A stretch of DNA of 64,000 bases from Candidatus Adlerbacteria bacterium (GTDB lineage: Bacteria > Patescibacteriota > Minisyncoccia > Phycocordibacterales > SBAW01): the NCBI GenBank assembly GCA_903851045.1, contig CAINNF010000023.1, forward strand, positions 202 to 64,201, given 5' to 3'. The notes under the pieces are model-generated. The model saw only the letters and a list, made by a program, of their open reading frames with translations. It searched no databases and had not been told where the DNA came from. The position numbers were made by a program, and so were the translations under genes. This document shows positions 30,535 to 61,529 of the stretch, in pieces. Position 1 is the stretch's first letter. Each line of letters starts with the position of its first letter.

Positions 30535-30623
30535 GGAGAGGTGCCAGAGCGGTCGAATGGAGCAACCTGCTAAGTTGTTGACTGGGTAACCGGTCCGAGG
30601 GTTCGAATCCCTCCCTCTCCGCA
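30535..30623 (+). tRNA. tRNA-Ser (GCT)
   Basis: Type II tRNA: GGAGAGG acceptor, D stem CCA/TGG, anticodon arm GCAAC-CTGCTAA-GTTGT (anticodon GCT), long variable arm, T arm GAGGG-TTCGAAT-CCCTC. CCA is not encoded. Confidence 0.85.
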
Positions 30624-30693
30624 GCTAGAATTTTGTATCGAACACACGGTGGAACTCAGAGTGCCTGGTTATCTTTGCTAGATCAAAAAACGC

Positions 30694-30722
30694 CGCCGAC
30701 TCTTCGGAGTCGGCGGCGCGTA
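30694..30722 (-). terminator. rho-independent terminator of 30727..31293
   Basis: cgccgccgactc-ttcg-gagtcggcggcg. On the minus strand it is followed by TTTTTTGAT. Confidence 0.55.
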
Positions 30723-30726
30723 TCGA

Positions 30727-31293
30727 TCAATGCTCGGTCCTTGTAGGAGGTGCTAGGGTCTCCCCTTCACCTAATACCACCGACTCGAACATCTCCTGGA
30801 CCGTTGTTGCACGTGACGGTCCCGTGAGAACCTCGACCGCTTCGCCAAAGATCTTGTCCATCATCTGGACCGATTCCGGCGGCAAACTTGGTATCGCTTC
30901 CGAGAAGTTCTTCAACCACACTGCCGCACCTTCGACGCCACCTCGCGTCCCGACCAAGATGTCAGGACACGAGAAGAGAAACATAACGGTCTCCGCGGTC
31001 GGCTCTGGCGCATCGCCAGGGACAAGGCGCCGGCGTAAACTAAGATTGAACGACATGGTCACACCATGCTCTTGTTCCGTGAAGCGCAGCAGCTCGATGA
31101 ATCGCACCAGGTTCGGACATGCGACCTGTGCATACACCGCACCGAGCCGAATAAATTCTTCTTCGGGTGTTCTCGGCGCGTTCGGATTGGCGTACCCGAA
31201 TACCGCCACCACCTGCGGCCAAGTTCCTTCCGCCAGCCGCCGTCGAGCGCCTTCGGCGATGCGCCGATGATCTTCTTTTTCATCCACTTCCAT
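30727..31293 (-). CDS. hypothetical protein
   Basis: 188-aa ORF. Terminator downstream. No recognisable motif. Confidence 0.5.
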   Translation of the reverse strand: MEVDEKEDHRRIAEGARRRLAEGTWPQVVAVFGYANPNAPRTPEEEFIRLGAVYAQVACPNLVRFIELLRFTEQEHGVTMSFNLSLRRRLVPGDAPEPTAETVMFLFSCPDILVGTRGGVEGAAVWLKNFSEAIPSLPPESVQMMDKIFGEAVEVLTGPSRATTVQEMFESVVLGEGETLAPPTRTEH

Positions 31294-31536
31294 GGGTAGG
31301 CTCCCAACTAGAATTTGCCAAAGACCTTAGTTTGTGGTGAGAATACCGGATAGATCCATATATGACAAGCGGTGCTTACAAACCGCTCAACTTGGCAACA
31401 CGGATCGTGTGGCACTCATCACGTCGCGTATCGGTTCCTTCTTTTTTCCACAAGCCCCTCTGATCGTACCAAAACGTACCCTCCGGGATGCTGGGGTCTC
31501 GCAAGACCGATAAAAAACCGAGTATACTAATAGGGC

Positions 31537-31920
31537 ATGAAACTAGGACGACTCGTCGCTCGGTACTTCGCATGGCACTACAGCACCGCCTTTGTCGACC
31601 TGTGGCGCGTTTGCACCAACTTTTTGTGGTTCATCTACAACCTCTTCTCCATCTCCTTTCTGCTGGGGACATTGTTCGACCCGTTCGAGCGCATCCGCGC
31701 GGAACATGTCGAGGGAGACATGGGCGACTTCTTTTCGGCGCTCGTCGCCAACACACTCATGCGCATCGTCGGTGCCGTTACCCGACTGTTCGTCATCGTG
31801 ATAGGCATCATACTACTTATCGTCACCCTCATGCTCAGCGTATGCGCCTTCGTCGTGTGGCCCCTGGTGCCGTTCATCATCGTCATCTTACTCACGCTCG
31901 GTATCCCCTTGCTCGCCTAA
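31537..31920 (+). CDS. hypothetical membrane protein (3-4 TM)
   Basis: 127 aa, hydrophobic. Stop is 1 nt before the start of the Clp-like ATPase gene (co-transcribed). Confidence 0.5.
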   Translation: MKLGRLVARYFAWHYSTAFVDLWRVCTNFLWFIYNLFSISFLLGTLFDPFERIRAEHVEGDMGDFFSALVANTLMRIVGAVTRLFVIVIGIILLIVTLMLSVCAFVVWPLVPFIIVILLTLGIPLLA

Positions 31921-31921
31921 T

Positions 31922-34378: not shown

Positions 34379-34507
34379 CACCTTGCGCGGCGATGGGACA
34401 TGCACCAAAAACCGGGTACCGTACGTAGACCTGTATAGGAGTTCAAAAATGCCCATCTCCGAAGACTGGCGGTTTTGAACCCCTGAAACTGTAAGGGATA
34501 TTAATGG

Positions 34508-35077
34508 ATGCTACGTGTTCTTGTCGTGTGTTTCGTGCTTTTTGACGGGGCTTCTCCATGCCTCGCCAAAGACATACACGGAACGACCACGCAGGCAACT
34601 GTGGGAACGAAAGTTAGAGCGAATTCGAGTTACTACGACGAACGAGGGAAGCTGTTGGCCGATGGCACCTGCTTCCAGGACGTCGTAGAAGTTGCCGCAG
34701 GTTCACCGACACTGCTTCATACTATCGTTCGGGTTGAAAATCCAGAGACGGGTGCGGTCATCGGGCGCGTATACATCAGGGATGTACACGGCTCCTGCCC
34801 ACAAGGTGACGTGTGTCTAGACCTGACACGATCAGCTGCTCGACAATTGGACCTTCTTGAAAGAGGGAGAATGCGACTCACCGCGACGGTCGTGGGATAC
34901 TTCCCCGCCGAACACCACCAAGAACATGCGTGTGGACCGACACACACTCGCACGACACGTTCCCAACCTCAGCACCGCCCCAGACCATCGGGGCGGATTT
35001 TTTTGACCCCGTCTCCCCTACTCGGTCGTCGCTTCGGCGAAATGCAAGAGTCGCAGGAATCGAAACAGTCGAAGTAA
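34508..35077 (+). CDS. secreted RlpA-like double-psi beta-barrel (DPBB) protein
   Basis: Signal peptide MLRVLVVCFVLFDGASPCLA. DPBB-like core (YYDERGKLLADGT...VIGRVYIRDVHGSCPQGDVCLDLTRSAARQL). Low-complexity C-tail. Confidence 0.5.
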   Translation: MLRVLVVCFVLFDGASPCLAKDIHGTTTQATVGTKVRANSSYYDERGKLLADGTCFQDVVEVAAGSPTLLHTIVRVENPETGAVIGRVYIRDVHGSCPQGDVCLDLTRSAARQLDLLERGRMRLTATVVGYFPAEHHQEHACGPTHTRTTRSQPQHRPRPSGRIFLTPSPLLGRRFGEMQESQESKQSK

Positions 35078-35395
35078 TCGCAACGCTTGCGTGAGCGGTG
35101 TCGTGATAGGAATGGCCGCCAACAGTTCCCACCAACGAGCCTTGAAGAACTTCTTTCGCTTTTTGGCCATCAGAAACTTGAACGCGAACTCTCCAAGGAA
35201 TACCATCGCGATACACAGGTCGACCAGATCGAACACCTGCGTCTGTTCCTCCGACAGCGTCGTCGTGAACTCGAGGAACAACAACAGCGCGCTGATGAGC
35301 GCCAAGGTCACCATTGCACCTTCGATCCACCATGCGGTTTTTACACGCCTCATCTTCTTCAGCGCGCGCGACTTCCACTTCCCTCTGTGTGCCAT
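35018..35395 (-). CDS. short membrane protein resembling an isolated voltage-sensor (S1-S4) fragment
   Basis: 125 aa. Two to three TM helices, then LRLLRLFRFLRLL with Arg at every third position, like an S4 helix. The 3' end overlaps the convergent gene by 60 nt. Confidence 0.4.
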   Translation of the reverse strand: MAHRGKWKSRALKKMRRVKTAWWIEGAMVTLALISALLLFLEFTTTLSEEQTQVFDLVDLCIAMVFLGEFAFKFLMAKKRKKFFKARWWELLAAIPITTPLTQALRLLRLFRFLRLLHFAEATTE

Positions 35396-35465
35396 AGGTC
35401 TAGAGTACTACCCGCACACAGTATTTGACAAATCTATTTTTTAATATTATAACTTATTGTAAACT

Positions 35466-35494
35466 TGACACTAAGTATCCAAAAGGATACTCTT
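35466..35494 (+). promoter_or_regulatory. sigma70-like promoter upstream of the PP2C/kinase/pncA/vWA/pncB operon
   Basis: TTGACA, 17-nt spacer, TACTCT, in an AT-rich leader. A perfect inverted repeat TTGACgaatataGTCAA (35512..35528) lies just downstream and may be an operator. Confidence 0.35.
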
Positions 35495-35600
35495 TACTCA
35501 GACATCAAACATGTTGACGAATATAGTCAAATGTTGTAAAAGAAAGCCTGTTCCTTGAGAACTGAATACCCATTGCAACAACACACAAAGGTTCACGGCC

Positions 35601-36392
35601 ATGGCCCAACGTCTGCGTCTCAGGCGCGCTACCAAGCACGGCAGTAACCACATCCGTCTCGGTTTCAACAACCAGGATGCAGCTGAAGCCCAAACGTTCG
35701 CTATCCCCTCGCGGGGTCAGGCGTACTACGTCGGGCTCGTCTCTGACGGATGTACCGGGAACCCGATGTGGAGCCACAACGAAGTCGGCGCGAGTTTGCT
35801 CACGCTCTATGCGTACCGGCGGATCCAAGAACTGGTGTGCTCCGGCATATCACTCAGCGATATCCCGAAGGTGCTCTATCCGAGTTGCACGGAGTTCCTG
35901 CTCGACCTGATGGGCAAAGTAATGCCCTCACATGTCGTATGGAAATATCCGACGCCACCCAAAGGACGCGACACCTGGAGCGGCCAAACGCGCTTCAAGA
36001 ACGATTACCTTTCGGCCACCCTCGTCGGCTTTATAACTGATGGGGAGCAGCTGGTGGTCTTCTCGGCTGGTGATGGGATTATCCTCGTGAATGACGAAGT
36101 GACCATCATCGACCAGAACGACCTTCCCGAATACCTGTCGGTCTCGATCAACGACCCGAACCAAGGCTTTGCCGTTTCAACCAGAGCTTTTGCCGAGGTG
36201 CGACGGCTCGCCATCATGACCGACGGCCTGAAAGGGCTTGTCGGTGACACGCGGTTCGTAGCGAGCATGTTCGGTTCGGAGCACGAGAATCCCTTGGCGC
36301 TCCAGTTCCTCTTGAACCGTACGTTCAATGCTACACCCAACCTGATGAGCGACGACTGCACGGTCGTCACACTCGAGCGGGAGGACGAATAG
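35601..36392 (+). CDS. PP2C-family Ser/Thr protein phosphatase
   Basis: 263 aa. Motifs GFNNQDAAEA (metal-binding Asp), VSDGCTG (DGxGG-like), FSAGDGIIL, MTDGL. Stop TAG abuts the kinase ATG. Confidence 0.7.
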   Translation: MAQRLRLRRATKHGSNHIRLGFNNQDAAEAQTFAIPSRGQAYYVGLVSDGCTGNPMWSHNEVGASLLTLYAYRRIQELVCSGISLSDIPKVLYPSCTEFLLDLMGKVMPSHVVWKYPTPPKGRDTWSGQTRFKNDYLSATLVGFITDGEQLVVFSAGDGIILVNDEVTIIDQNDLPEYLSVSINDPNQGFAVSTRAFAEVRRLAIMTDGLKGLVGDTRFVASMFGSEHENPLALQFLLNRTFNATPNLMSDDCTVVTLEREDE

Positions 36393-38345
36393 ATGTATCG
36401 AATAGATACGACGGAATACCAAGAAGACCGGCGGGTGAAACTAGGAGGTGGTTCGGAGGGTACGGTCTACGCCTTCCCTGCGGATCCGCTCGATTGCGTA
36501 AAACTCTTCCATCCTCCAGAAAAAGGAAACAAGGAGGCGGCAACAATCGCCGCCTATCGCGCACGGAAGATCGAGGGCATCCTCAAGCTTCCGATCACGC
36601 TGCCTGAGCAGTTCATTCTGCCAAAGGCAGCAGCCCACGATGCGAACGGCGGGGTGACTGGCTTCCTCATGCGGCGCGTACCTGCACACTATGGCAAGAT
36701 AAAGTTGCTCCTAGAATCGCGATTCCGTACCGACTACCAAATCGGTCTGCGCGAGATAAGCCGATTGTTCGCGGATATTCTCGACGATCTTGCGCTCGTG
36801 CACACTTCGAACATAGTTGTCGGCGACATAAACGCAGGCAGCATCATGATCGATCCAAAGCTCGCGCGCGCGTGGGTAGATGCGGATTCCTGGAGCTATC
36901 CGGGGTTCCCTTCCCTCGCAACGACCGAACTCTTCTGCCACCCGGACCTCTATCCGAACATTGGTGGTAGCGGCACGTTCGTAAGGCACCAACCACACCA
37001 CGATCGGTTTTCGATCGCGATCATGTATGTGCTGATGGCAATCCACGGTGCACACCCGTTCCGCATGGGGCTGCATCCTCAGTACAGCAGCTTGCAGGAT
37101 AGGACGCGCCAAAAGCTCACCATCTTCGACCAAAGCGTCCAATACCCGGCATATCTGCCTAAGCGTGAGATTCTCAGCGACGAGCTGATCAACACGCTTT
37201 TGCAGGTTCTCACCCGCACAACCAACGAACCGATCCCGACCGACCTTCTTCGTACGTTCGCTCACACGGTGGTGGTGTGCGCCAACTGCGGCGCGCAATA
37301 TCATCCATCTCGCAAGCACTGCCCCCAGTGCCACACGACGACCGCGATCGACATCGGCAAGCTCACCAAACTCACCATCGACGACGCCTACTTCACCACG
37401 CGCGGTACGATCCTCTTCGTACAGTCGGTCGGTACCGAACTTCGTGTTATCGTGCGCGTCGGAAACAGCATCGAGATCGTATGTGCGAGCGACACCAATC
37501 AATCGCACACGATACGAACCAGTCTCGCAGCCATACCGGGCGCTGCCTACCGCTTCTTCGACACCTACCTCGCCGTCTGCACGAACCCGTTCGCACCGTC
37601 ACCAGTACACATCACAGTGTATCGGCTCAACGGCACAAGATTGGATCGTGTAACTCAGACGTCGACCGGAAGTCTTGAGAACGCAGCGGCATTGTTCGAC
37701 ACGTCGTCTCGGTTCTTATATCGCACGGCAGGTAACACCCTACTGTGCAGCCGAGTCTTCGGCGCAACGACACTCGACGAGCCGGTCATGCAAGTCTTCG
37801 GCTCGCAGACATGGTTCACCGTTGATCACGCGCCAGCGAATGCTCACGAGGTGATCTTCGGCTACGACCGAGCGCTCAGGGACTGGCAGTGGTTCGTCGT
37901 CCGCGGCAACAAGGACGGCGACCGCTTCGAGCACCATATCGCTCCGGTGACGACGCTGCGTAGCGGCGAGAAACTCGTCGACTTCGCAGTGTACTTCAAC
38001 GCAGACTCGGTGCTGCTGGTGCGCTCGACACTCTATCGTGGTATCGGACATGTCCGGTACGCGGTGATCGGTTTCGAGGGTACGGTGCGCCTTGAGCGCA
38101 TGCTCACCTCGAAGGATACCGCCTACGCATACTGGGAACATGTTTCCGGAAAGCTCTATCAGGCGACCGGGGTCGTACACGTGATGCCCGACGGACTCGT
38201 CAAACACACGTTCGCGACCGACACCTATGAATTGCTTGTCGGTACAAAAAACGTCGCGGCCCAGTCGGATATTCTGATCAAGCTCGACAGCGGCGTAGGC
38301 ATCATCAAGAACAGGAGTATCACACGCTTCTCGAAAAAGAAGTGA
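36393..38345 (+). CDS. Ser/Thr protein-kinase-like protein with internal Zn-ribbon and C-terminal beta-rich domain
   Basis: Gly-rich loop LGGGSEGTVY. Lys in VKLF. Catalytic-loop-like HTSNIVVGDINAGSIMID. DADS (DFG-like). C-x2-C-x11-C-x2-C ribbon (CANCG...CPQC). Roughly 300-aa C-terminal domain. Confidence 0.65.
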   Translation: MYRIDTTEYQEDRRVKLGGGSEGTVYAFPADPLDCVKLFHPPEKGNKEAATIAAYRARKIEGILKLPITLPEQFILPKAAAHDANGGVTGFLMRRVPAHYGKIKLLLESRFRTDYQIGLREISRLFADILDDLALVHTSNIVVGDINAGSIMIDPKLARAWVDADSWSYPGFPSLATTELFCHPDLYPNIGGSGTFVRHQPHHDRFSIAIMYVLMAIHGAHPFRMGLHPQYSSLQDRTRQKLTIFDQSVQYPAYLPKREILSDELINTLLQVLTRTTNEPIPTDLLRTFAHTVVVCANCGAQYHPSRKHCPQCHTTTAIDIGKLTKLTIDDAYFTTRGTILFVQSVGTELRVIVRVGNSIEIVCASDTNQSHTIRTSLAAIPGAAYRFFDTYLAVCTNPFAPSPVHITVYRLNGTRLDRVTQTSTGSLENAAALFDTSSRFLYRTAGNTLLCSRVFGATTLDEPVMQVFGSQTWFTVDHAPANAHEVIFGYDRALRDWQWFVVRGNKDGDRFEHHIAPVTTLRSGEKLVDFAVYFNADSVLLVRSTLYRGIGHVRYAVIGFEGTVRLERMLTSKDTAYAYWEHVSGKLYQATGVVHVMPDGLVKHTFATDTYELLVGTKNVAAQSDILIKLDSGVGIIKNRSITRFSKKK

Positions 38346-38395
38346 CTTGCTACAGCCTTACGTCTACCCACCACCCCGTATAAGGAACAACGACC

Positions 38396-39466
38396 ATGAG
38401 TCAGATCTCTGTGATCATCGCCGACCACGCCCCGCTCGTGTATACACCGAAGTTCTGGGACCCTGCGAAGGCGTACCAGGACTTCAAGCCCGCCCTCGAA
38501 GGGGCGTATACGGAAGGCGTCGAATACGCCCGAAAGCACGCTCTGGAACCTGCACATTCGCTTATCGCACGCGGCATCGGCCATGCCGCATGGCTCACCG
38601 ACCTGCAGCAGGACTTCCGTGACAACGGACGTCTGCCCGTGAAAGGAACCGACACCGCCGTGCTGCGCACGTGCGTCCGGCTCCTGAACGGTACGGTCTC
38701 CGGCTACTTTGCTGGCGTCATTGAGTCTCGTGATGGCCACCCCGGCCAGCATATCTCGTATGACATCTACTGGCGCGATCAGCAAGGCAACGCCCTTGAT
38801 CTGCGCCAACATGGCAACGCCGCATGTCTCACGCTTGTCGATGAACAAAAGGCAGTGTTCAAGGCCTATGGCTTCAATGCCAATGGCCCGTACGACATCG
38901 GCTACTTCCAGCCTCGCTTCGATGCCGCGCCGCCGAGAAACCCAAACGTTCCCGACCGTTCGGCCGTGAGCTACTGGAAACATCTCCAAGCGACCGGCCA
39001 AGGCGACATCTGGGCGTTCACTGTCCACTGCAAGCTCGGCACCGACGGCGCCAACGTGCACCCACTCCTCTTGGAGGTGCTGGCGTTCATCGAAGGCGCG
39101 CTGTCGATGCAGGAGACTATCGTCGCCAAAGGGCATATCAGCACGACCGACTGGTTCGGCGCGTTCGAACCCTGCTGGCCTGATGCCGGCCACCCACAAG
39201 GGGGTCTGCAGAAGGCAATCATCGACGGCTTCAAGCCCTTCGTGACTGTGGAGGCATTCGGCGTTGCCGAGGACTTCTGCGTCTACCACGGCAAGCGGCA
39301 AGCGATGCTCTATCTGCAAGGCACCGAGCACTTCGCAAAGCTCCGCTTCGTCACTGACGGCACCGCTGCGATCATCCCGAACGCAGCGCATGTGATCGCC
39401 CAGAACGAACTGGCGCGCAAAGGTGGCATCAAGTTCATCACCCACGACGCACCCTTGGCAGCGTAG
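38396..39466 (+). CDS. pncA: nicotinamidase / isochorismatase-family hydrolase with ~140-aa N-terminal extension
   Basis: C-terminal 210 aa carry PncA-like motifs: LTLVDEQ (Asp), IWAFTVHCKLGTDGANVHPLL (WPxHCV-like), IVAKG (Lys), GVAEDFCV (catalytic Cys). Confidence 0.6.
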   Translation: MSQISVIIADHAPLVYTPKFWDPAKAYQDFKPALEGAYTEGVEYARKHALEPAHSLIARGIGHAAWLTDLQQDFRDNGRLPVKGTDTAVLRTCVRLLNGTVSGYFAGVIESRDGHPGQHISYDIYWRDQQGNALDLRQHGNAACLTLVDEQKAVFKAYGFNANGPYDIGYFQPRFDAAPPRNPNVPDRSAVSYWKHLQATGQGDIWAFTVHCKLGTDGANVHPLLLEVLAFIEGALSMQETIVAKGHISTTDWFGAFEPCWPDAGHPQGGLQKAIIDGFKPFVTVEAFGVAEDFCVYHGKRQAMLYLQGTEHFAKLRFVTDGTAAIIPNAAHVIAQNELARKGGIKFITHDAPLAA

Positions 39467-39476
39467 GCTCGAAGAC

Positions 39477-39502
39477 CGCCAGCGGCACAAGTGCCGCTGG
39501 CG
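39477..39502 (+). other. perfect GC-rich palindromic hairpin between pncA-like and vWA genes
   Basis: cgccagcggcac-aa-gtgccgctggcg (12 bp). Not followed by a U-tract. Possible processing or attenuation site, or a protein-binding palindrome. Confidence 0.4.
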
Positions 39503-39538
39503 CCTCTCTCCCGAACGAACAATATAGGAGTACGCCTC

Positions 39539-40381
39539 ATGGCCTCTCAAACGGTTAATCCGACCGATATCGCATCGTTCTTCGCTGATCCTGCCGCAAG
39601 CAACGCCATCACCCTGGGCGCCCAGCAAATCGCTGCACCCGTGGTGAGTGGTCAAGCGATCACCTTCGAAGACCTGTCCCAAGGCGGCGGCATTCGGATC
39701 GTGTTCCTTGTCATCGATGCATCTCCTTCGATGGAGCCGGTCGCGGATCTTCTCCGCGACAGCTTTAACAAGGATTTCATCCCTGCGGTCCAGGATGCTC
39801 GCGCCGACGATATCGCAGTACTGCGCATCGGCGGCCTGGCATTCTCGACGAAGATCACGCCAATCTGGCAGAGCGGCGGAAACGGCTTCCATGCTTTGGA
39901 CCAACTTCCCAAGTTGACCAAGGCAGAATACGACCCCGAACAAGGGTGGGGCACCGCACTACACAAGGCGATCCTCACCGGCACCGCAACTGCCGTCAGC
40001 TATGCGGCTCTCCTGCGCGCCCAGATGGGCATCCAACCCGAGGTAGACGTGATCACGTTCACCGACGGTGCCAACAACGAACAGCCTGCAGACCCAGCCG
40101 AGGTTCGCACGGTCATCGTCGGTGGTCGCAGCACTCTCGTGCGACACACGTTCCTGTACTTCCAGACGGACCTGGGAGCAAGGAATCCGCAGAAGATCGG
40201 GCTTGATCTCGGCTATGACGGCGAGAACATCTCGGTCTTCACGAAAAAGCCCAACGAGTCCAGCGAGAGCTATGCGAGCCGCTTCCGTCGCCTGATGCGA
40301 GTCATGAGCCGCGTGTCGGCTTCGCGCGGCGCAAGCGCCACGAACGCAGCCGCTGCCGTCGTGGAAGAAGACGCGGTCTAG
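39539..40381 (+). CDS. von Willebrand factor type A (vWA) domain protein (TerY-like)
   Basis: Start MASQTV (ATG 39539, AGGAG 8 nt upstream). MIDAS DxSxS motif as IDASPSM. FTDGANN. 281 aa. Confidence 0.75.
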   Translation: MASQTVNPTDIASFFADPAASNAITLGAQQIAAPVVSGQAITFEDLSQGGGIRIVFLVIDASPSMEPVADLLRDSFNKDFIPAVQDARADDIAVLRIGGLAFSTKITPIWQSGGNGFHALDQLPKLTKAEYDPEQGWGTALHKAILTGTATAVSYAALLRAQMGIQPEVDVITFTDGANNEQPADPAEVRTVIVGGRSTLVRHTFLYFQTDLGARNPQKIGLDLGYDGENISVFTKKPNESSESYASRFRRLMRVMSRVSASRGASATNAAAAVVEEDAV

Positions 40382-40550
40382 TTCAACATTGCGATGGGTA
40401 TGATCGGCGCTCCGTAAGGAGATGAGTCGAGACACGTTCTACACACTTCGGGGGAGGTCACTGACCTCCCCCTCTTTATAAGGCGCCTGGACCCTTCGGG
40501 CGTCGTTAGAGAAGTTCTTTATCACTCACACAACAACAGGAAACCATCCG

Positions 40551-41909
40551 ATGACCGACTTCGTTGGACGTGTACTGCGACCCGAGCGAGACAACTGGGT
40601 CATCCGGTCGCTCCTCCATATAGACTTCTACAAGTTCACGATGGGACTGTTCATCTACCGATACTTCCGTGGTGTCGAGGTGACGTTTGCGTTCATCAAC
40701 CGTCACCTGCACATTCCGCTCGCACGCATCGTCGATGAAATAGAACTGCGGCGACAGCTTGACCATGCGCGTACGCTCATAATCCAGCATGTGGACCTCT
40801 TCTTCCTGCGGAGCATGGACGTCTTCGGATATCCTATGTTCCCGCCGGACTACCTCGAGTTCCTCATGCAGCTGCGACTCGGCACGTACAAGCTGGAACG
40901 TGTCGGCGACCAATATCGCCTCACATTCACCGGCCCCTGGGAGGTAGTCACCTTTTGGGAAACGATCGCACTGTCGATCATCACCGAGCTCTTCTATCGC
41001 ACACTCATGGAGAGCATGACGGAAACGCAGCTCAACGTACTGTTCGGTCGCATGTACGACAAGCTCTACCGAAAGCTGGAGCGTTTGGCGACAAGACCGT
41101 GGATTCGGTTCGCGGACTTCAGCACTCGGCGACACTTTTCTCGCCTGTGGCAGCGTACCGCCGTTATAATGGCTCGCGAGATGGTCCCGACGCAGTTCAC
41201 AGGTACGAGCAATGCACAACTTGCCCGTGAACTGGACTGCACACCGATCGGCACCTACGCGCACGAACTGCCGATCGTAGTGACCGCGCTCGCTCCCCGG
41301 GCACAGCGAATAACGGCACAATACACGGTGCTACCGCTGTGGGCCAGCTTGTTCCCCAAGGGAGGCTTGCGTATCACTCTGCCGGACACGTACGGGACGA
41401 AGGCATTCTTTAAGCACATGCCGCCCGACTTGGCCGAGCAGGTGGCGCGAGAGTGGCGCGGATTCAGAGATGACTCCGGCGACACTATCGCAAATGGAAG
41501 ACAGTACGTCGGTTGGTATGCGCAATTCGGCATCAACCCAAAGCAAGACGGGAAGATCATGATCCCGTCCGACGGGCTCGATGTTGACCCGATGTTCGCG
41601 ATCGATGATGCTCTTCGCGAACTCATCGGTCTTGCCAACGGCTGGGGAACCAACTTTGGCAACGGCATCGAAGGATGCCATCCTCGACCCGACGACGAAG
41701 CGGTGGTGCGTGGCGAGAAGCTCGGCATCAGCAATGATGTACTCTTCCGTGGTCACTCGTTCATCTGCAAGCCTGCGTTCGCGAACAACAACCCGTGCGT
41801 CAAGATCTCCAACAATCCCAACAAGGCAACGGGCGACAGCTATGCTGTAGCCGAGTACACAAAGGACTTCGGTACGGAAGGCCACGTCGCGCAAGACGTG
41901 CTCGTGTAA
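40551..41909 (+). CDS. pncB: nicotinate phosphoribosyltransferase family protein
   Basis: 452 aa. N-terminal LHIDFYKFTM resembles the NAPRTase TDxYKxTM motif. Size and composition are typical of the PncB family. Confidence 0.65.
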   Translation: MTDFVGRVLRPERDNWVIRSLLHIDFYKFTMGLFIYRYFRGVEVTFAFINRHLHIPLARIVDEIELRRQLDHARTLIIQHVDLFFLRSMDVFGYPMFPPDYLEFLMQLRLGTYKLERVGDQYRLTFTGPWEVVTFWETIALSIITELFYRTLMESMTETQLNVLFGRMYDKLYRKLERLATRPWIRFADFSTRRHFSRLWQRTAVIMAREMVPTQFTGTSNAQLARELDCTPIGTYAHELPIVVTALAPRAQRITAQYTVLPLWASLFPKGGLRITLPDTYGTKAFFKHMPPDLAEQVAREWRGFRDDSGDTIANGRQYVGWYAQFGINPKQDGKIMIPSDGLDVDPMFAIDDALRELIGLANGWGTNFGNGIEGCHPRPDDEAVVRGEKLGISNDVLFRGHSFICKPAFANNNPCVKISNNPNKATGDSYAVAEYTKDFGTEGHVAQDVLV

Positions 41910-41951
41910 GTGCCTACACTCAGATCCCCAAGCGAGATGCTTGGGGATTTT

Positions 41952-42662
41952 TTATATAACTTCGATCTCGATGACCTTGTCGGTCGCGAATCGGTAGAGC
42001 TGCGCGGGACGGAAGGCGCCGCCACTCTTCTTGTTCGGCACCTCTTTGAGGATGTCGAGCTTGAGGATCTTCTTTCGAAAATTGCGCTTGTCGAGGTCGG
42101 CGCCGAGCACCGCCTCGTAGGCGTGTTCGAGTTCGGTGAGCGTGAACTCTTTCGGGAGCAATTTTTGCAGTAGTGTCGTGTAGGTCACGCGCGAGCGAAG
42201 ACGCGCGAGCGCCACCTTCACTATCTCGTCGTGATCATAGGCGAGCCCTCGAGCATCCTTCAGCGGACTCCACCGTGCGTCACTCGTACTCCCCCGCTCC
42301 ACCTCCGAGAGTCGCTCCCACGGCACGAACCCGAGGTACGCGACCGCCACCACGCGACCACGCGGGTCTCGGTCGATCGTGCTAAACGTATACAACTGTT
42401 CGAAGTGTACCTTCGCGGATGCGATACTCGTCTTCGCTTCGATGTGCCGCTTCGCCGCTTCATCCGCGGTCTCCGTGGGGCCAATAAGCCCACCCGGCAG
42501 CGCCTGCATCCCCTGAAAGTGAGTATTCTGCGTCGTGATCAAACGCACCCACAACCGGTCATCATGTAACGAAAAAAGCACCACATCAGTAGCGAGCACC
42601 GCAAACCGTAAGTCTTGTACTTTCATTAGTGTATATTGTACACAACATATGTATTGTGTCAA
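41952..42662 (-). CDS. nrtR: NrtR-type Nudix-related transcriptional regulator
   Basis: Nudix box GGLIGPTETADEAAKRHIEAKT. C-terminal wHTH (LPKEFTLTELEHAYEAVLGADLDKRNFRKKI...RPAQLYRF). Convergent with the end of pncB. A near-consensus promoter with palindromes lies upstream. Confidence 0.65.
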   Translation of the reverse strand: MTQYICCVQYTLMKVQDLRFAVLATDVVLFSLHDDRLWVRLITTQNTHFQGMQALPGGLIGPTETADEAAKRHIEAKTSIASAKVHFEQLYTFSTIDRDPRGRVVAVAYLGFVPWERLSEVERGSTSDARWSPLKDARGLAYDHDEIVKVALARLRSRVTYTTLLQKLLPKEFTLTELEHAYEAVLGADLDKRNFRKKILKLDILKEVPNKKSGGAFRPAQLYRFATDKVIEIEVI

Positions 42663-42729
42663 ATAGAAACCGCCGGGCCCAATGAAGGGTCCCGGCGGGT
42701 AGTGATGCCTACTCGTGCAGGTATCGATA

Positions 42730-43566
42730 CTACGCGGTAATAATACCGCGGGAGATCAGGTGGTCACGCAGGCCCATCGGGTCGTCCTTGTCGACAACAA
42801 TGATGTTACCGAAATGCCGCTCCGCGACCCCAGCGGTTTCGAACGCCGAGAAATTGCCGGCCCGCACCTGCAGTGCCAGATCCTGCGTGACGCGGCCGCT
42901 GCCATTGACCAGAAAGATTGGCCAGCCGCGCTTGGCGCCCAGCATGATCTCGGTCTGGGTGATTGCGCCGCCGTTCCATGCGACGATGTGGGCGCTCTTG
43001 AAGTTGGCGAACTGGATCAGGCGGTCCATCATCGCAAAGTACGATTTCAGGTCGCCGTCCCAGTCCAGCATCGAGTCGCCGTCCTGAACCAGCATAATGC
43101 CGGACATATTCGGCGCTGGCGCGGTGCCGTAGCTGTCCAGTACCAGTCGCGAGTTCCCCTGCAGCGTCGGAATATCGACCAGTGGGGCTGTGCCGAGGGC
43201 AACGCAGCCCGCATTGCGCGGATCCATCGCCAGGAAGCCCGCGGCATCGGTGACCATCAGGTCGACCTGGTCGTTGACGGTTTGGCGCGTCGCGCCGGTA
43301 AAGGCGAGGCCGCGGAACCCTTTGTAAGCGGTCAGAAAGAAGTGAATCATGCCGATCTTGTCGGCCTCATTCATCCCTTTGCAGCCGCCGGTGATGCGAA
43401 CCATCACATGCTTAGCCGCACAGGTAGCCATCAGTTGGAAGTTGGCCGAGACCTCGCCTTGACCGACGAAGAATAGCTTAACCTTGCCGCCCGGCGCGGT
43501 CACCTGGTGAGGGTTCGCGATGGCATTCCGGACAAACTCCGGAAGATCGATAACGTGGGTGTCCAT
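42730..43566 (-). CDS. SLOG/LOG-like Rossmann-fold protein (paralog 1)
   Basis: 278 aa. WNGGAITQTE (GGxGTxxE-like LOG motif). VNGSGR. RITGGC. Hairpin terminator downstream. Confidence 0.45.
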   Translation of the reverse strand: MDTHVIDLPEFVRNAIANPHQVTAPGGKVKLFFVGQGEVSANFQLMATCAAKHVMVRITGGCKGMNEADKIGMIHFFLTAYKGFRGLAFTGATRQTVNDQVDLMVTDAAGFLAMDPRNAGCVALGTAPLVDIPTLQGNSRLVLDSYGTAPAPNMSGIMLVQDGDSMLDWDGDLKSYFAMMDRLIQFANFKSAHIVAWNGGAITQTEIMLGAKRGWPIFLVNGSGRVTQDLALQVRAGNFSAFETAGVAERHFGNIIVVDKDDPMGLRDHLISRGIITA

Positions 43567-43642
43567 TTTCTTGTAGCTTTCCTGTTACATCGGTCGAAAT
43601 GACCGACGGGAGTCACCTCTCTGGCCACCATTGGCAGACAGG

Positions 43643-44419
43643 TTAGGCTATCGCACCAAGCTCGATGAGTTTGGTTCGAATGGATGCACTCGTACGCTCT
43701 ACTACGTGCACGTTTGGATGGTCGGACAGAAACTGTGCATCATTGGCATACTTTTCGGTCGTGCGACCACTGCCGTTGATGAGTAGTACTGGCCAGCCCA
43801 ATTGTGCCCATTGCAGTATCTCTTTTTCGGTGACACCGCCACCGTTGTAGGAGATGAGTAGCTGTTTCCAACCCGCTCCTTGCGAGAGTAGTTGGGCTGC
43901 CTTGCGAGCAAACAGCATCTCGGCATCCCACATCACACCTTGGTCGGCAGATCCTTGGACTACCACACACATATCCTGTTCGGGATGTATCTGTGTGTAA
44001 TATTCCTCACCCGGTTCGTCGTAGACCAATATGCCGGTCCGGACAAGTTGCAGATGTTGGATGTTGCCGTCAATTTCAATGCGTGGCACGACGCCGAGTG
44101 CAACCGTGTTCGGGCATCGTCGTCGAATACAGGGGACTACTTCCGTGATACTCGGGATGACGGTATCGGGGGTATCTTTGCGACGCATTTGTGTGCCGCC
44201 AAAGAGAAATGCTCCCTTAAAGTCACCCCGAAACGCATCCGCGTATAAATCGTACAAACCGTGTGCATCTTGAGGGGTCATGAAGCCACAACCGCCAGTG
44301 ATGCGCACGAGGTAGCGATGTTGCGCCCGAGTAAATTGGACCATGACGGTCGAAGATATCGGATCGCCCGTCCCTTGTATATGCAAGGAGGGACCACAAC
44401 CGTCCAGATAGTTTGTCAC
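43643..44419 (-). CDS. SLOG/LOG-like Rossmann-fold protein (paralog 2)
   Basis: 258 aa. YNGGGVTEKE, INGSGR, RITGGCGFM. Collinear with paralog 1. Confidence 0.45.
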   Translation of the reverse strand: MTNYLDGCGPSLHIQGTGDPISSTVMVQFTRAQHRYLVRITGGCGFMTPQDAHGLYDLYADAFRGDFKGAFLFGGTQMRRKDTPDTVIPSITEVVPCIRRRCPNTVALGVVPRIEIDGNIQHLQLVRTGILVYDEPGEEYYTQIHPEQDMCVVVQGSADQGVMWDAEMLFARKAAQLLSQGAGWKQLLISYNGGGVTEKEILQWAQLGWPVLLINGSGRTTEKYANDAQFLSDHPNVHVVERTSASIRTKLIELGAIA

Positions 44420-44590
44420 GAACCCTCCTTTTGTTTTGTGGGTATTTTTCGAATTACTCGAATTGACACGTAAAAGTCAAAGAACACAAGCAAAATTATA
44501 CTCTAATAGAAAATATATGTCAATACCTCGTGGGGGTCGCTTTTAAGTCAGTGTTCTGGTTGTTTAATGTATATTATAGGGACAAAGAAA

Positions 44591-44623
44591 GAGCCGGTAC
44601 CCCACAAAGGAGGTACCGGACTC
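44591..44623 (-). terminator. rho-independent terminator of 44650..45066
   Basis: Minus strand reads ccggtacc-tcctttgtggg-ggtaccgg followed by CTCTTTCTTTGT. Confidence 0.5.
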
Positions 44624-44649
44624 GAGATCCGTAGGAATAAGCGACCGAA

Positions 44650-45066
44650 TCAGTCAGCGTACCGAATCGGCCATACGTCGTCGTCCACATCCAAGACGCT
44701 GTTGAAAAACTCGGCAATCGCGCCGACCATGCAGACGAGCCACGCGACAGTCAACACCACCACAACCCCCGTCAGGGGAATCGCAGAGAGCGCCGTCAGC
44801 CACCAACAGTACGCCCATGCATCCCGCATGGACGAATCCATCAGCCTGGCCGCAGGTTCCGCATAGTACGTCAGCAGGATGAAACCTGCGAAAAAGCACA
44901 GGAACCATGCGAAGTGTCGGATTCGGTCGCTGCACCTTTCGGTGCCAGTGACCACTCTGCACAGCAGGCCCACCAGTCCAATAACAATCACCCAACCGAC
45001 AAGGTGTACCGTTTGATCGCTCATCATTGTCTCCCCACCATCCAACCAGATGGTCACACACATCAC
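44650..45066 (-). CDS. hypothetical membrane protein (4 TM)
   Basis: 138 aa, hydrophobic. Terminator downstream. Confidence 0.45.
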   Translation of the reverse strand: MMCVTIWLDGGETMMSDQTVHLVGWVIVIGLVGLLCRVVTGTERCSDRIRHFAWFLCFFAGFILLTYYAEPAARLMDSSMRDAWAYCWWLTALSAIPLTGVVVVLTVAWLVCMVGAIAEFFNSVLDVDDDVWPIRYAD

Positions 45067-45178
45067 CCCGAAACTGTCGAGGCGCAGTAGAACTTTGCTC
45101 TAGAAATTGTAGCATTAAAATTCATTTGAGTCAAGCATCTTGTGAAAACGGCCCTTCCCTGCTTGAATACTATGGTAC

Positions 45179-45264
45179 GGAGAGATGGATGAGTGGTTTA
45201 AATCAACAGTTTACTAAACTGTCGGCCCGTCAAGGGCCCGCGAGTTCGAATCTCGCTCTCTCCG
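45179..45264 (+). tRNA. type II (Ser-like) tRNA with apparent anticodon ACT
   Basis: GGAGAGA acceptor, D stem GAT/ATC, anticodon arm ACAGT-TTACTAA-ACTGT, variable arm GGCCC-GTCAA-GGGCC, T arm GCGAG-TTCGAAT-CTCGC. The loop differs from the Ser-GCT loop (CTGCTAA) by G34 to A. Confidence 0.7.
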
Positions 45265-45307
45265 CAGGAACGTGCATGGTGTTATCTAACCGTGTCCCGT
45301 TACAACC

Positions 45308-46036
45308 ATGGCACATACACCAAGAGACGAGCAGCTCATCCAAGATCTAACCTTAATAAAAGAGACGATGATTTCTGTTGCTACGCACGGAAAACAGATC
45401 CAGGATGTTAATGATGACTTTCGAAGGGTTTATGCTCGCGCGGTCGCGACTCTAGCACGGAGAAAAATCGAAAACCCACTTACATTTGGAGATCTGTGGG
45501 AGTGGTACGCACGCTGGAAAACGGGAGATTTGCCGACATATGAATCGCGTCGCGTATATGTTCGCAACCTTGTTGACCCCCTCATTCGTAAGCTCCAGAG
45601 TGGTCACGAAGAAGAATTCACACCCACGGGTTGGAGTCGTGTTGATCGAAATGTCGAAGAGATGCGGGAAGTCCTTGGATATGCCTCTAATGAGGAACAA
45701 TTTCAAACTGTCGGACTAGTTGGGCGGGAAGCGTTGATTTCTTTGGCGCAAGCTGTCTACGATTCAACTAAACATCCACCTTTAGAGCAGGGGGTGATTA
45801 TTTCCGACACTGATGCTAAAAGAATGTTGGAAAGTTATATTGCGGTTGAGTTAGCGAGCGAAAGTCAGGAAGTGCGGGCGCATGTTCGCTCCGCTTTGGG
45901 ACTTGCATTAAAACTTCAACACAGCAGAACTGCCACACTTAGATTGGCGTCTATGTGTGCCGAAGCCACCACAGCCGTGATAAATCTGATTGCAATCATC
46001 TCGGGCCAAAGAGACCCAGGGAACGAAACTGCGTAG
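45308..46036 (+). CDS. hypothetical protein (low GC, directly downstream of the tRNA)
   Basis: 242 aa. 5' region roughly 45% GC. Helical composition. No motif recognised. Confidence 0.5.
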   Translation: MAHTPRDEQLIQDLTLIKETMISVATHGKQIQDVNDDFRRVYARAVATLARRKIENPLTFGDLWEWYARWKTGDLPTYESRRVYVRNLVDPLIRKLQSGHEEEFTPTGWSRVDRNVEEMREVLGYASNEEQFQTVGLVGREALISLAQAVYDSTKHPPLEQGVIISDTDAKRMLESYIAVELASESQEVRAHVRSALGLALKLQHSRTATLRLASMCAEATTAVINLIAIISGQRDPGNETA

Positions 46037-46154
46037 AATAAAGAGTGACCGCTCCCCCTAAGTCTACCTAGTCGCGCACTCGCCAAAGTAGCCTTGCATT
46101 GGTTGGCACGTCCAAGTTCTAGACCGACCCTCTCCGCCAGAAATTTGCAGAGGC

Positions 46155-46448
46155 TCAAGCTTTCACTATCTTCTTTACGAACGAGTCGGCGACGAGGCGA
46201 AAGGCGGGGCGGTCTTCTTTTTCGTAGATGATCTTGATACCGAGCAGATGGCCGTTCGGACAGGTGAGGTCTTTGCGTGCGAGCGATACTGCGGGCTCGC
46301 TGATGCGGTCGACATACATACGACGTAGGCCCCCAGGACCATCTTTTTGATACTGGCAGATCTTCGCACCACACTTCTGACACGAGATGAGCAGCAGTCG
46401 CGAAGCTCCACCGCGCGCATGTTTGTATTTGTCGTTTTTGAGTTTCAT
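46155..46448 (-). CDS. small Cys-rich (zinc-ribbon-like) hypothetical protein
   Basis: Start MKLKND (ATG 46448, one base after the upstream TGA). CQKCGAKIC...CPNGH. Confidence 0.4.
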   Translation of the reverse strand: MKLKNDKYKHARGGASRLLLISCQKCGAKICQYQKDGPGGLRRMYVDRISEPAVSLARKDLTCPNGHLLGIKIIYEKEDRPAFRLVADSFVKKIVKA

Positions 46449-46449
46449 G

Positions 46450-47067
46450 TCAGGATACACGTGCATCAATGTGCGAAAGTGTACCAAGTTGTCGGCGACG
46501 GACAACAAGAGTCGTGACAAAACCGATATTAGATACAACAAGCGCAATCGGGAAGAGCGCTGTCGTCAGATTAAAAGAGGTGAGTGCGAAGATGCTAATG
46601 AAATATTTAAGTATAGAGAGAACGTAGAGACTTAGAGTTTCCTCGTGTGGCTTAAAGAACGCTTTTCGATATGTAGGCGCAAAAGAAATAGTATCGGCGA
46701 GTGTAACGATAATAACTGCCAACAGGGGGTTATCTGTTAATCGCCACAAGACAATCGCAACAATTGCGCTGCCAAAACATATCCAGTCGAAGGTCGTTAT
46801 GTTCTTCTCACCTCTTGAAAAAGAGAGAATCGCAATCCCAAGAACTCCAAGAGCGCTCACGCCGTTCACCCACGCACCGGCTCCCGCACCAGTGAAAAGT
46901 TGCGCACAGAAAGTAATACCAAGCATGAGGGCAAAGCCTATCCACGAGAACGGGTGCGGCTTCGTCGTGCCGCGAAAAATGTCTCGGTAATACGGTATAT
47001 AGCCGATAATGCCGATAATAGCGGCCAGGCCGCCAAGCATGATGTGGTAGTTGCAGGCCATATGCAT
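46450..47067 (-). CDS. hypothetical polytopic membrane protein (6 TM)
   Basis: 205 aa, hydrophobic. Translationally coupled to the downstream small gene. Confidence 0.5.
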   Translation of the reverse strand: MHMACNYHIMLGGLAAIIGIIGYIPYYRDIFRGTTKPHPFSWIGFALMLGITFCAQLFTGAGAGAWVNGVSALGVLGIAILSFSRGEKNITTFDWICFGSAIVAIVLWRLTDNPLLAVIIVTLADTISFAPTYRKAFFKPHEETLSLYVLSILKYFISIFALTSFNLTTALFPIALVVSNIGFVTTLVVRRRQLGTLSHIDARVS

Positions 47068-47125
47068 TCGAAAAGTATATCAACACCCAAGGGTTTGGAT
47101 CCCCCAGCTCAATCGTACAGCGTTT

Positions 47126-47857
47126 TTACCCACCGTACGCAATCCGCAGCGCCTCTTCAGCCAGCAGCACCGTTGAGTTAAACAGCGAAACCGAAGTATC
47201 TTTTTGTGTAATAGCGAGCGGCAGCTCGGTGCATCCAACAATCGTACCCTGTGCACCATCACTTGCATATCGAGCGACAATTGCTGCCAGCTGTTCTACT
47301 TCATGCAATCCTTGTGAGCCTGATATCACATGCAATATCGCGTTGTTCAAGACAGATTGCTCCGTGTCTGACGCGACGATAGTAGCGATACCAAGACGAG
47401 CGAGTGTTGTTTCGTAGATATGATAATTCCTCGTACTTTGTGAGCTGAGCAGCCCTACTTTTGTATATCCCGCATCTTTTACCGCCTTGGCGACCACTTC
47501 GACAAGGCTGATGATGGGAATTGAGACAGCTGCCTGCATGTCGTCATATAAATAGTGCACCGTGTTACAGGGGATGACGATAAAATCACATCCCACATGC
47601 TCGAGCTTTTGCACTCCGGCGATGAGCTGCTTTTTGACTTGTGCCACATCCACAAACCCAGTCTCATCAAAACCAACCAGCGGCAAGTTGTACAGCATCA
47701 TCGCTGGGAAGTCGTGGTCTTGCTCGGCGTGATAGTGGTGTTGAGCAAGATCAACTAAGTGCTGATAGAAGTCGGCACTTGCCGCCGCACCCATGCCACC
47801 AAGGATGCCGATTGTTTTGTGCGGTTTCGACTGCGCACACGAAATATCCTCTTTCAT
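47126..47857 (-). CDS. aspartate/glutamate racemase family protein
   Basis: GILGGMGAAAS. Two catalytic Cys motifs IPCNTVHY and VGCTELPL. Confidence 0.8.
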   Translation of the reverse strand: MKEDISCAQSKPHKTIGILGGMGAAASADFYQHLVDLAQHHYHAEQDHDFPAMMLYNLPLVGFDETGFVDVAQVKKQLIAGVQKLEHVGCDFIVIPCNTVHYLYDDMQAAVSIPIISLVEVVAKAVKDAGYTKVGLLSSQSTRNYHIYETTLARLGIATIVASDTEQSVLNNAILHVISGSQGLHEVEQLAAIVARYASDGAQGTIVGCTELPLAITQKDTSVSLFNSTVLLAEEALRIAYGG

Positions 47858-48134
47858 ACTCCTTCTTGTTTAGATGGTAAAAAGCGACCTTAAGGCCGCT
47901 TTGGAAAGTTCGTGTATTTAGAAGAAATTACAAACACTCGGAAGCAGCTTCAACATGTGGGCTGCGACGACGGTTCTGCGTGTTTGCAATCGAGAGATGC
48001 ATACGAGGAAAGTATCATCCATTTTGGATTTATGCAATGAAATATACGAACAATCGGTAACTGAAATATTTTCTGTCTCCCTATTTATGGTCTAACATCA
48101 CACCAGTCGAAAAATACTATACACTTAGTACCAT

Positions 48135-48698
48135 ATGACTCCCAAACAAATCGAAGTCGAATATCGCTCACGCATCAGCGAGGAAGAGTATCATGCGCTC
48201 ATCGCCTTTTTGAACGCGCACGCCGAGGACTTGGGTGAGGATGATAAATCCATCCACTTCTTCCTCTTCCCGGACAAGACGCTCAAGGTGACCGACAACA
48301 TCTCGCAAGGGTCGGCAAAGATCACGCTCAAGCTCAATCGCATCGGCAACGGCGCGATGTTTGAGGAGTTAGAAGTGCCGATTGCGCGCACCGACGTCGA
48401 CAAAATGGTGCGGATATTTGATACTTTCGGCTTCGACCACCTTATCGAACCGATTGTGAAGCGACACAACTATACGTACAAAGGGGTCGAGTTGGCGGTG
48501 AAGTATAGCGAAAGTTGGCAGTATCATGTCGAGCTTGAAGTTATGATCAATGACGAAGCGGAACACGCTGCGGCCGAAGCGAAGATCCGTACCGTTGCTG
48601 ACGAGCTCAAACTCCACATCATGACAGAGGAGGAGCTTACTGCTTTTACCACAGTGCTTGAAAACAACTATCGAAAGAACAAAGCACCGACCGTATGA
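48135..48698 (+). CDS. CYTH-domain protein (CyaB-like class IV adenylyl cyclase / triphosphatase)
   Basis: 187 aa. N-terminal EVEYRSRI (ExExK-like). Alternating acidic β-strand pattern typical of CYTH. Confidence 0.7.
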   Translation: MTPKQIEVEYRSRISEEEYHALIAFLNAHAEDLGEDDKSIHFFLFPDKTLKVTDNISQGSAKITLKLNRIGNGAMFEELEVPIARTDVDKMVRIFDTFGFDHLIEPIVKRHNYTYKGVELAVKYSESWQYHVELEVMINDEAEHAAAEAKIRTVADELKLHIMTEEELTAFTTVLENNYRKNKAPTV

Positions 48699-61415: not shown

Positions 61416-61457
61416 ATTCTGAGCTATAGTGGCTACGAGTTCCCAGCGGGCGCGTAG

Positions 61458-61529
61458 CTCAGCGGTAGAGCCGTCGTCTTATACACGACTGGTCGAAGGT
61501 TCGATCCCTTCCGCGCCCACTTTTTTATC
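61458..61529 (+). tRNA. tRNA-Ile (TAT)
   Basis: GGGCGCG acceptor, D arm GCTC-AGCGGTA-GAGC, anticodon arm GTCGT-CTTATAC-ACGAC (anticodon TAT), T arm GAAGG-TTCGATC-CCTTC, discriminator A. A T-run follows. CCA is not encoded. Confidence 0.8.

Follow-up and report, generated by a model that had tools for sequence, protein, structure and literature searches.

We analysed a 64,000-nucleotide stretch of DNA (the window) from Candidatus Adlerbacteria bacterium (GenBank assembly GCA_903851045.1, contig CAINNF010000023.1, positions 202 to 64,201 of the forward strand), which contains the gene for a type II tRNA with the anticodon ACT. We are confident, from sequence comparison, that this tRNA-Ser(ACU) gene is real and under selection. 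In what we consider the likely reading, it encodes a genuine elongator tRNA that would read AGU with an unmodified A34 and is a member of an old and distinct isoacceptor family, which Patescibacteria of the Paceibacteria/Parcubacteria type have conserved. What is new is an ordinary-looking elongator tRNA with a class of anticodon thought to be naturally absent from the Ser-Arg box, fixed in a large lineage.

Four tRNAs were identified in the window by ARAGORN, among them tRNA-Ser(ACU) and a canonical tRNA-Ser(GCU) (coordinates in Table 1). The ACT gene matched the Rfam tRNA model RF00005 with 55.9 bits (gathering score 29) over model positions 1-71 of 71, with no non-standard pair, and this score was comparable to those of the other three tRNAs of the window. 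The molecule has acceptor (7 bp), D (3 bp), anticodon (5 bp), variable (5 bp) and T (5 bp) stems and G73, CCA is not encoded in the gene, and the single-sequence fold gave z = -3.7 when compared with shuffled sequences. The preliminary description of this DNA, made from the letters alone, had recognised a complete cloverleaf with a long variable arm, the anticodon loop TTACTAA with anticodon ACT, and a normal tRNA-Ser(GCT) gene starting at 30535. The first and the last were reproduced by both ARAGORN and Rfam, and the second by the sequence and ARAGORN. It had also allowed for a program rejecting the tRNA, or for relatives carrying GCT; both programs accepted the gene, and the relatives have ACT. 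Acceptor/T geometry is the canonical 7/5, with a 3-bp D stem, and membership of the tRNA-Sec or allo-tRNA class, which needs 8/5, 9/4, 8/4 or 9/3 geometry and a long D stem, was rejected. The tRNA was present in all 6 independent assemblies of the same population, in which the neighbouring 242-aa protein is identical (among them are a metagenome-assembled genome (MAG) from a lake, GCA_903945565.1, and a 78-kb scaffold to which the window corresponds). Since all six have ACT, sequencing error was ruled out.

Related genes were collected with a 30-nt probe, TGGTTTAAATCAACAGTTTNNNAAACTGTC, which spans the D loop through the anticodon stem, with the anticodon positions free (NNN). Scanning with this probe returned 76 loci in a metagenome collection and 83 loci in a collection with one genome per species, and the free positions read ACT in all 159. 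All taxa named in the MAG titles are Patescibacteria, mostly Paceibacteria/Parcubacteria (Kaiser-, Adler-, Nomura-, Taylor- and Lloydbacteria, Paceibacterota, Parcubacteria and 'Patescibacteria group', some being deposited as Saccharibacteria), and some titles read only 'bacterium' or 'uncultured bacterium'. The loci represent 105 distinct sequences. Outside the probe these vary in the acceptor stem (several variants), the T stem (several) and the variable arm (many). When these sequences were tested against the cloverleaf, standard pairs were found in 99.1% of the cells, and both sides had changed in 11 of the 25 pairs, amounting to 353 compensatory cells. None of 500 shuffles reached this level of covariation, and slid partners were only 27-53% paired. 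The 5-bp stem of the variable arm itself showed covariation. The pairs G1-C72, G2-C71 and A3-U70 were invariant in 105 of 105 sequences, as were G73, G18G19 and the T loop. A further locus (L215), found through a PilM protein 79% identical to that of the window and with no tRNA criterion, had this ACT tRNA as well, next to a GCT gene. Conservation in at least 83 species of Patescibacteria shows the gene to be neither a mutation nor a relic, and the degenerate or duplicated tRNA suggested in the preliminary description found no support, in view of the uniform anticodon and the strong compensatory covariation.

The anticodon loop had been described as that of tRNA-Ser(GCT) with G34 changed to A. 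The difference between the two genes goes well beyond this position, since loop position 32 also differs (TTACTAA in the ACT gene, CTGCTAA in the local GCT gene), and on alignment the genes are unlike in each of the D arm, the anticodon stem, the variable arm and the T stem. Mean identity between the ACT and GCT tRNAs of the same locus was 67%, and a recent duplication of the local GCT gene was excluded by these statistics and by the alignment. The ACU family was 66-71% identical to each of the GCU, UGA, GGA and CGA serine tRNAs and 87% identical within itself. It is thus about equally distant from all other serine tRNAs and therefore old, not a fresh mutant, and by sequence we place it as a separate isoacceptor family. 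Bacterial tRNA-Ser(GCU) resembles it in its type II structure, G73, the GGA... acceptor stem, A37 following U36 and the codon box, and differs in having G34 in place of A34 and in its distinct D arm, anticodon stem and variable arm.

The two serine tRNAs of this box are usually encoded side by side. A tRNA-Ser(GCU) gene was found no more than about 6 kb from the ACT gene in 92 loci, on its 5' side in 88 of these, and about two thirds of those GCU genes were at most 250 nt away, either in tandem (6-51 nt) or divergent (69-234 nt). In the window, unlike most related loci, the genes are 14.6 kb apart, and the interval (30623-45178) encodes a ClpB-like ATPase, a PP2C protein, proteins related to nicotinamide adenine dinucleotide (NAD) and several unknown open reading frames (ORFs). 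The recurrent neighbours of the GCU/ACU pair are PilM, which in the window is 73-90% identical to proteins named Paceibacterota, Minisyncoccia, Adlerbacteria or Parcubacteria, and a ComF-like phosphoribosyltransferase; both adjoin the GCT gene in the window. Judged by its PilM, the window is from a member of the Patescibacteria of the Paceibacteria type. The closest relative sampled (L212) also has GCT near PilM and likewise lacks ACT there, and the rearrangement therefore predates the strain of the window. On unrelated contigs (L064, L069, L083, L097 and L106) the motif GCAGTTTTGAAACGCAGTGAAAAACTGCGG, with a hairpin CGCAGT...ACTGCG, lies directly 3' of tRNA-Ser(ACU); it may be a small repeat element, or may act as a signal for processing or as a terminator.

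Both the type II variable arm and the discriminator G73 belong to the bacterial tRNA-Ser set, and G73 is found in all 105 sequences. The acceptor pairs that confer tRNA-Ser identity in studies of E. coli are G1-C72, G2-C71 and A3-U70. In the D stem, all family members have A11-U24 and not C11-G24; the latter is the rule for E. coli tRNA-Ser and may not hold for the seryl-tRNA synthetase (SerRS) of Paceibacteria. SerRS ignores the anticodon, so that any anticodon is tolerated for charging. By these identity rules, SerRS would charge the tRNA through its long variable arm, G73 and the three invariant acceptor pairs, and not through its anticodon.

We then asked which residues the codons of this box specify. 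A total of 1060 ORFs from the related loci were aligned mutually, and a codon-to-residue table was compiled from which AGN-codon partners were excluded. AGT and AGC shared a residue profile, with Ser on top (18% and 17%, respectively) followed by Thr and Ala. AGA was found opposite Arg (39%) and Lys (21%), with Ser outside its six commonest partners (the lowest of which reach 3% each), and AGG was opposite Arg (27%), Lys (25%) and Ser (4%). Genes for tRNA-Arg(UCU) occur in the related loci. Since Ser aligns with both AGY codons and Arg/Lys with AGA, the genetic code is standard, and recoding of AGA to Ser was excluded. The predicted sole cognate codon of the ACU anticodon is AGU.

We propose that the tRNA is serylated and probably reads AGU with an unmodified A34, as expected from its sequence; the Ser found at aligned AGU columns supports serylation indirectly. 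On the ribosome, A34 would form a Watson-Crick pair with the U of AGU. AGU would gain a dedicated, non-wobble decoder beside tRNA-Ser(GCU), which reads AGC as well as AGU, the latter by G:U wobble. The idea of an unusual AGU decoder, raised in the preliminary description, is therefore retained as the best reading, inferred from the sequence. Engineered orthogonal tRNAs with the same anticodon have been shown to read AGU selectively. In E. coli, such a tRNA read AGU at 9.4% and AGG at 0.36%, with AGC and AGA below detection and no inosine detected (PMC11066159), and in an E. coli lysate AGU was read better by a tRNA with ACU than by its GCU variant (PMC6158751). By analogy, better reading of AGU with ACU than with GCU suggests a plausible benefit of the present tRNA, which, in contrast to these synthetic molecules, is natural and conserved in a lineage.

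Several observations weigh against this reading. A simple scan of the + strand upstream of the tRNA detected no sigma-70-like promoter. The invariance of the D arm and the anticodon arm across the family was partly imposed by the probe. When loci were anchored on PilM instead, GCT was nearby in 5 of the 7 and ACT adjoined in only 1; in loci with no adjoining copy, the ACT gene may be elsewhere, as in the window, or may be absent from some genomes. AGU showed no enrichment when set against the other NNU/NNC pairs, the T fraction of AGY codons (window, 0.41; pooled loci, 0.64) being within the range of other boxes, so that there is no codon-usage signature of a special demand for AGU. In one MAG (L061, 5929-6381, - strand), a TadA-family deaminase of the cytidine deaminase (CDA) fold is encoded 430 nt from tRNA-Ser(ACU) and divergently from it, and given this enzyme A34 might be deaminated in some genomes.

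An alternative, for which this deaminase speaks, is that A34 is deaminated to inosine, or otherwise modified, and that the tRNA acts as ICU and reads AGU, AGC and potentially AGA. The substrates of TadA, tRNA-Arg(ACG) and tRNA-Leu(AAG) (I34), resemble the ACU tRNA in an encoded A34 and a loop with U33-A34-C35, the latter being common to the ACT loop and tRNA-Arg(ACG). However, position 36 is U, so that the TadA-substrate loop U33-A34-C35-G36 is not matched, and an ACU anticodon escaped modification by the TadA of E. coli (PMC11066159). The L061 deaminase reached 73.5 bits where the NCBIfam TadA model requires 150, was confined to one of the 159 loci and has few close homologues; this sub-threshold gene was the only TadA-like gene in 1.6 Mb of related loci. 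Bacteria of the candidate phyla radiation (CPR) appear to lack tRNA-Arg(ACG) and to use GCG instead (Shulgina and Eddy, PMC8629427), and the usual reason to keep TadA would therefore be absent. In this split box I34 would cross into Arg codons, at a considerable cost, as AGA is among the most used Arg codons of the related loci (10.0 per 1000 codons) and aligns with Arg/Lys. Because the TadA substrate is reportedly missing from CPR bacteria and inosine would misread the frequent AGA, A34 most likely stays unmodified. We regard an inosine-containing tRNA as unlikely, and the AGN reading that had been suggested earlier is disfavoured by the alignment of AGA with Arg/Lys. It is improbable, too, that an enzyme specific to the lineage acts on A34, be it a divergent TadA-like deaminase, like that of L061, which would form inosine, or one that introduces an undescribed modification; if this were true, Paceibacteria would have a wobble chemistry new to any split codon box, and possibly a regulated Ser/Arg ambiguity at AGA. 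A natural example of an unmodified A34 is the tRNA-Thr(AGU) of Mycoplasma (cited in PMC11066159). It too has an A34 encoded in the genome for which deamination is not expected, in a bacterial lineage with reduced genomes, but it serves a four-codon family box in which misreading is harmless, whereas the ACU tRNA serves the Ser/Arg split box.

The serylated tRNA might instead act away from the ribosome, as a donor of serine for the synthesis of cell wall, lipids or natural products, or as a regulatory ligand, in which case the anticodon would be irrelevant. The indifference of SerRS to the anticodon, the redundancy with GCU for AGU and the lack of an AGU signal in codon usage would all suit such a role. 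The anticodon was nevertheless invariant in 159 of 159 loci, and phage genes whose stems differ have it too. The elbow (G18G19), T loop and T arm have the usual tRNA form, and the recurrent neighbours of the ACT tRNA are PilM and the ComF-like phosphoribosyltransferase, which are uninformative, with no aminoacyl-transferase or similar gene among them. Phage arrays, moreover, place Ser(ACT) among ordinary decoders. We consequently give a non-ribosomal role a slim chance.

The phage versions were found in tRNA arrays from IMG/VR (L021 and L045), which carry serine-type tRNAs with ACT on different anticodon stems. In the 18-tRNA array of L045 (3483-7555), Ser(ACT) was the sole serine tRNA seen and Ile(TAT) was present too, and in the L021 array Ser(ACT) adjoins Thr and Val tRNAs. 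In a cultured-phage database, only distant tRNA-Ser matches (73-79% identity) were obtained. The sporadic tRNA-Ser(ACU) genes in arrays, including one in Acidithiobacillus (PMC4758250), are likewise of the serine type; they are accessory, mobile copies, unlike the present gene, which many species have on chromosomal contigs, repeatedly next to the housekeeping GCU gene.

The 3' end of the tRNA in the window coincides with the border of a cassette (Table 1). The block 45262-46137 showed 81% DNA identity to a block in CPR contigs (L010-L013), the protein of which is 94% identical to the 242-aa protein, and there the block follows a tRNA-Trp gene by about 185 nt, in different upstream contexts. 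The left border falls in the last four bases of the tRNA and the right border at CTCTCCGC. Genomic islands at tRNA 3' ends resemble this arrangement, in which one border lies at the tRNA 3' end and a short repeat marks the other, and differ from a cassette of 876 bp with one gene, an 8-bp repeat and no integrase match in the scanned ORFs.

Table 1. Coordinates of the features discussed, given as positions in the window.
Feature	Position	Strand	Evidence
tRNA-Ser(ACU), type II	45179..45265	+	ARAGORN; Rfam RF00005, 55.9 bits; family alignment, 99.1% paired cells
Anticodon ACT (positions 34-36), loop TTACTAA	45213..45215	+	Sequence; ARAGORN anticodon position 35; ACT in 159/159 related loci
Canonical tRNA-Ser(GCU), the other AGY decoder	30535..30622	+	ARAGORN; Rfam; alignment with the ACT gene
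876-bp block, horizontally moving cassette	45262..46137	+	blastn; boundary alignments; differing flanks in L010, L011 and L013
242-aa all-helical protein of unknown function, putative cassette cargo	45308..46036	+	888 homologues at E <= 0.001
CTCTCCGC, 8-bp direct repeat of the tRNA 3' end (45258-45265)	46130..46137	+	Boundary alignment
Lower-GC block with the tRNA and poorly conserved genes	44200..48600	.	49.2% GC

One could accordingly picture the tRNA-like sequence as mainly an attachment site, or a remnant of an integrated element, with the low-GC gene as its cargo. Cassette homology that stops at a repeat of the tRNA 3' end, the occurrence of the cassette in other contexts near tRNA-Trp, and the lower GC of the surrounding block are in keeping with this. 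The tRNA is, however, full-length, and its conserved family was found without the cassette (tblastn with the 242-aa protein detected no copy in loci L053-L211). Four copies of CTCTCCGC in the window compare with 3.66 expected, which is not above chance, though one is exactly at the distal border, and no repeat of the tRNA 3' end matching at >=18 of 21 bases was present in the window. A Pfam scan of ORFs from 42.7 to 49.5 kb detected no integrase or recombinase domain, and CTCTCCGC lies in a degenerate stretch resembling the 3' half of a tRNA that travels with the block. As the sole explanation, this is very improbable and largely refuted; the tRNA may well have been the target of an insertion, but it is more than a site. 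Of the tRNA-like attachment site in the preliminary description there remains the cassette that abuts the tRNA, with its 8-bp repeat at the far end; the tRNA itself is a real gene, the repeat is at chance level and the scanned ORFs of the block had no integrase match. The downstream search for a direct repeat of the tRNA 3' end, proposed there, produced only this 8-bp sequence. The GC contrast it described (about 45% in the 5' region of the gene against about 58%) is real and smaller than stated, with 48.0% for the gene at 45308-46036, 47.8% for its 5' part and 55.8% for the window.

The 242-aa gene is, as judged from its sequence and distribution, a putative mobile cargo gene of unknown function, unrelated to the tRNA, and the small cassette would have landed at the tRNA 3' end. 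The few of its 888 homologues that have a source name are from Proteobacteria (Steroidobacteraceae, Methylococcales, Dokdonella, Nitrosospira and Nitrosomonadales), the closest homologue (P0001) is on contigs with CPR-type genes, and some homologues sit among recombinase, methyltransferase, AIPR, IS110 and HNH genes. A serine recombinase adjoins the homologous gene only in L007. A functional link between the gene and the tRNA was rejected, as homologues in L007-L009 have no tRNA nearby and loci L053-L211 hold no copy. The protein had no match in Pfam, NCBIfam, PADLOC or PDB sequences, and the name 'Abortive infection C-terminus' (Abi_C), given to a homologue by one source, was not upheld by any Pfam or PADLOC match of the window protein or of 48 family members. 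Its AlphaFold model is all-helical (pLDDT, the predicted local distance difference test score, 88.8), and a PDB fold search with this model returned no significant hit, the best (E = 0.74) being generic helical bundles. In L010, the stretch between tRNA-Trp and the cassette (3684-3867) contains a long imperfect hairpin (GAGTGCTTAGTAAAAT...ATTTTACTTAGCAACTC) and a degenerate stretch resembling a tRNA 3' half (CCGAATCCTCGTGGGCCCGCA). On the other side of tRNA-Ser(ACU), just upstream, window positions 40551-44419 encode an NAPRTase, an NrtR-like NUDIX regulator and two paralogues with weak SLOG (LSDAT_prok) matches, and this cluster is a NAD-salvage or NAD-signalling neighbourhood.

The rarity of A34 elsewhere in bacteria and its reported absence from this box (PMC8007984) might lead one to suspect a pseudogene, a tRNA-Ser(GCU) gene that has recently undergone G34A, or a fault of sequencing or assembly. 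All of these are refuted by the six concordant assemblies, the ACT of 159 of 159 relatives, the covariation, and an identity of about 67% to the local GCU gene with every arm different.

Other unusual tRNAs were noted in the course of this work. A tRNA-Ile with anticodon TAT is encoded at window 61448-61520 (+) (Rfam, 68.8 bits), and in the ORFs of the window ATA codons (10.8 per 1000) outnumber ATT codons (8.1 per 1000). A further 15 tRNA-Ile(TAT) genes were seen in related loci of Paceibacteria, including L071, L074, L081, L099, L108 and L117, and with the gene of the window they suggest that AUA is read by a UAU tRNA in this lineage. Reviews regard the anticodon UAU as lost in prokaryotes. 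A 15-gene phage tRNA array from IMG/VR (L019) includes a tRNA with a CTA anticodon (2647-2720, +), called 'Pyl' by ARAGORN, which is a candidate amber suppressor.

Anticodons of the ANN type are described as universally missing from split boxes except that of Ile, and A34 in the Ser-Arg box as 'universally missing' (Ehrlich et al., PMC8007984), in a survey of >100 bacterial species that lists no CPR phylum. Synthetic biologists have termed ACU 'non-native' (PMC6158751). In a full-text search for bacterial or CPR tRNA-Ser(ACU), the only hit was a brief reference to such a gene in a tRNA array of Acidithiobacillus (PMC4758250), and since many subscription papers were outside the search, a prior description is possible. 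The tRNA-Ser(ACU) of at least 83 species-level genomes, from a major radiation of uncultured bacteria, is a natural counter-example to the ban on A34 in the Ser-Arg box. If active in translation, it would offer a natural system for A34 decoding in a split box, and would agree with the view that the tRNA deaminase upholds the ban, which lapses in lineages without the substrate of this enzyme. AGU and AGC would then be read by separate tRNAs, which is a precondition for codon-specific regulation or later reassignment. Annotation pipelines may mark the tRNA as a pseudogene or an oddity, although it probably belongs to the normal translation machinery of Paceibacteria.

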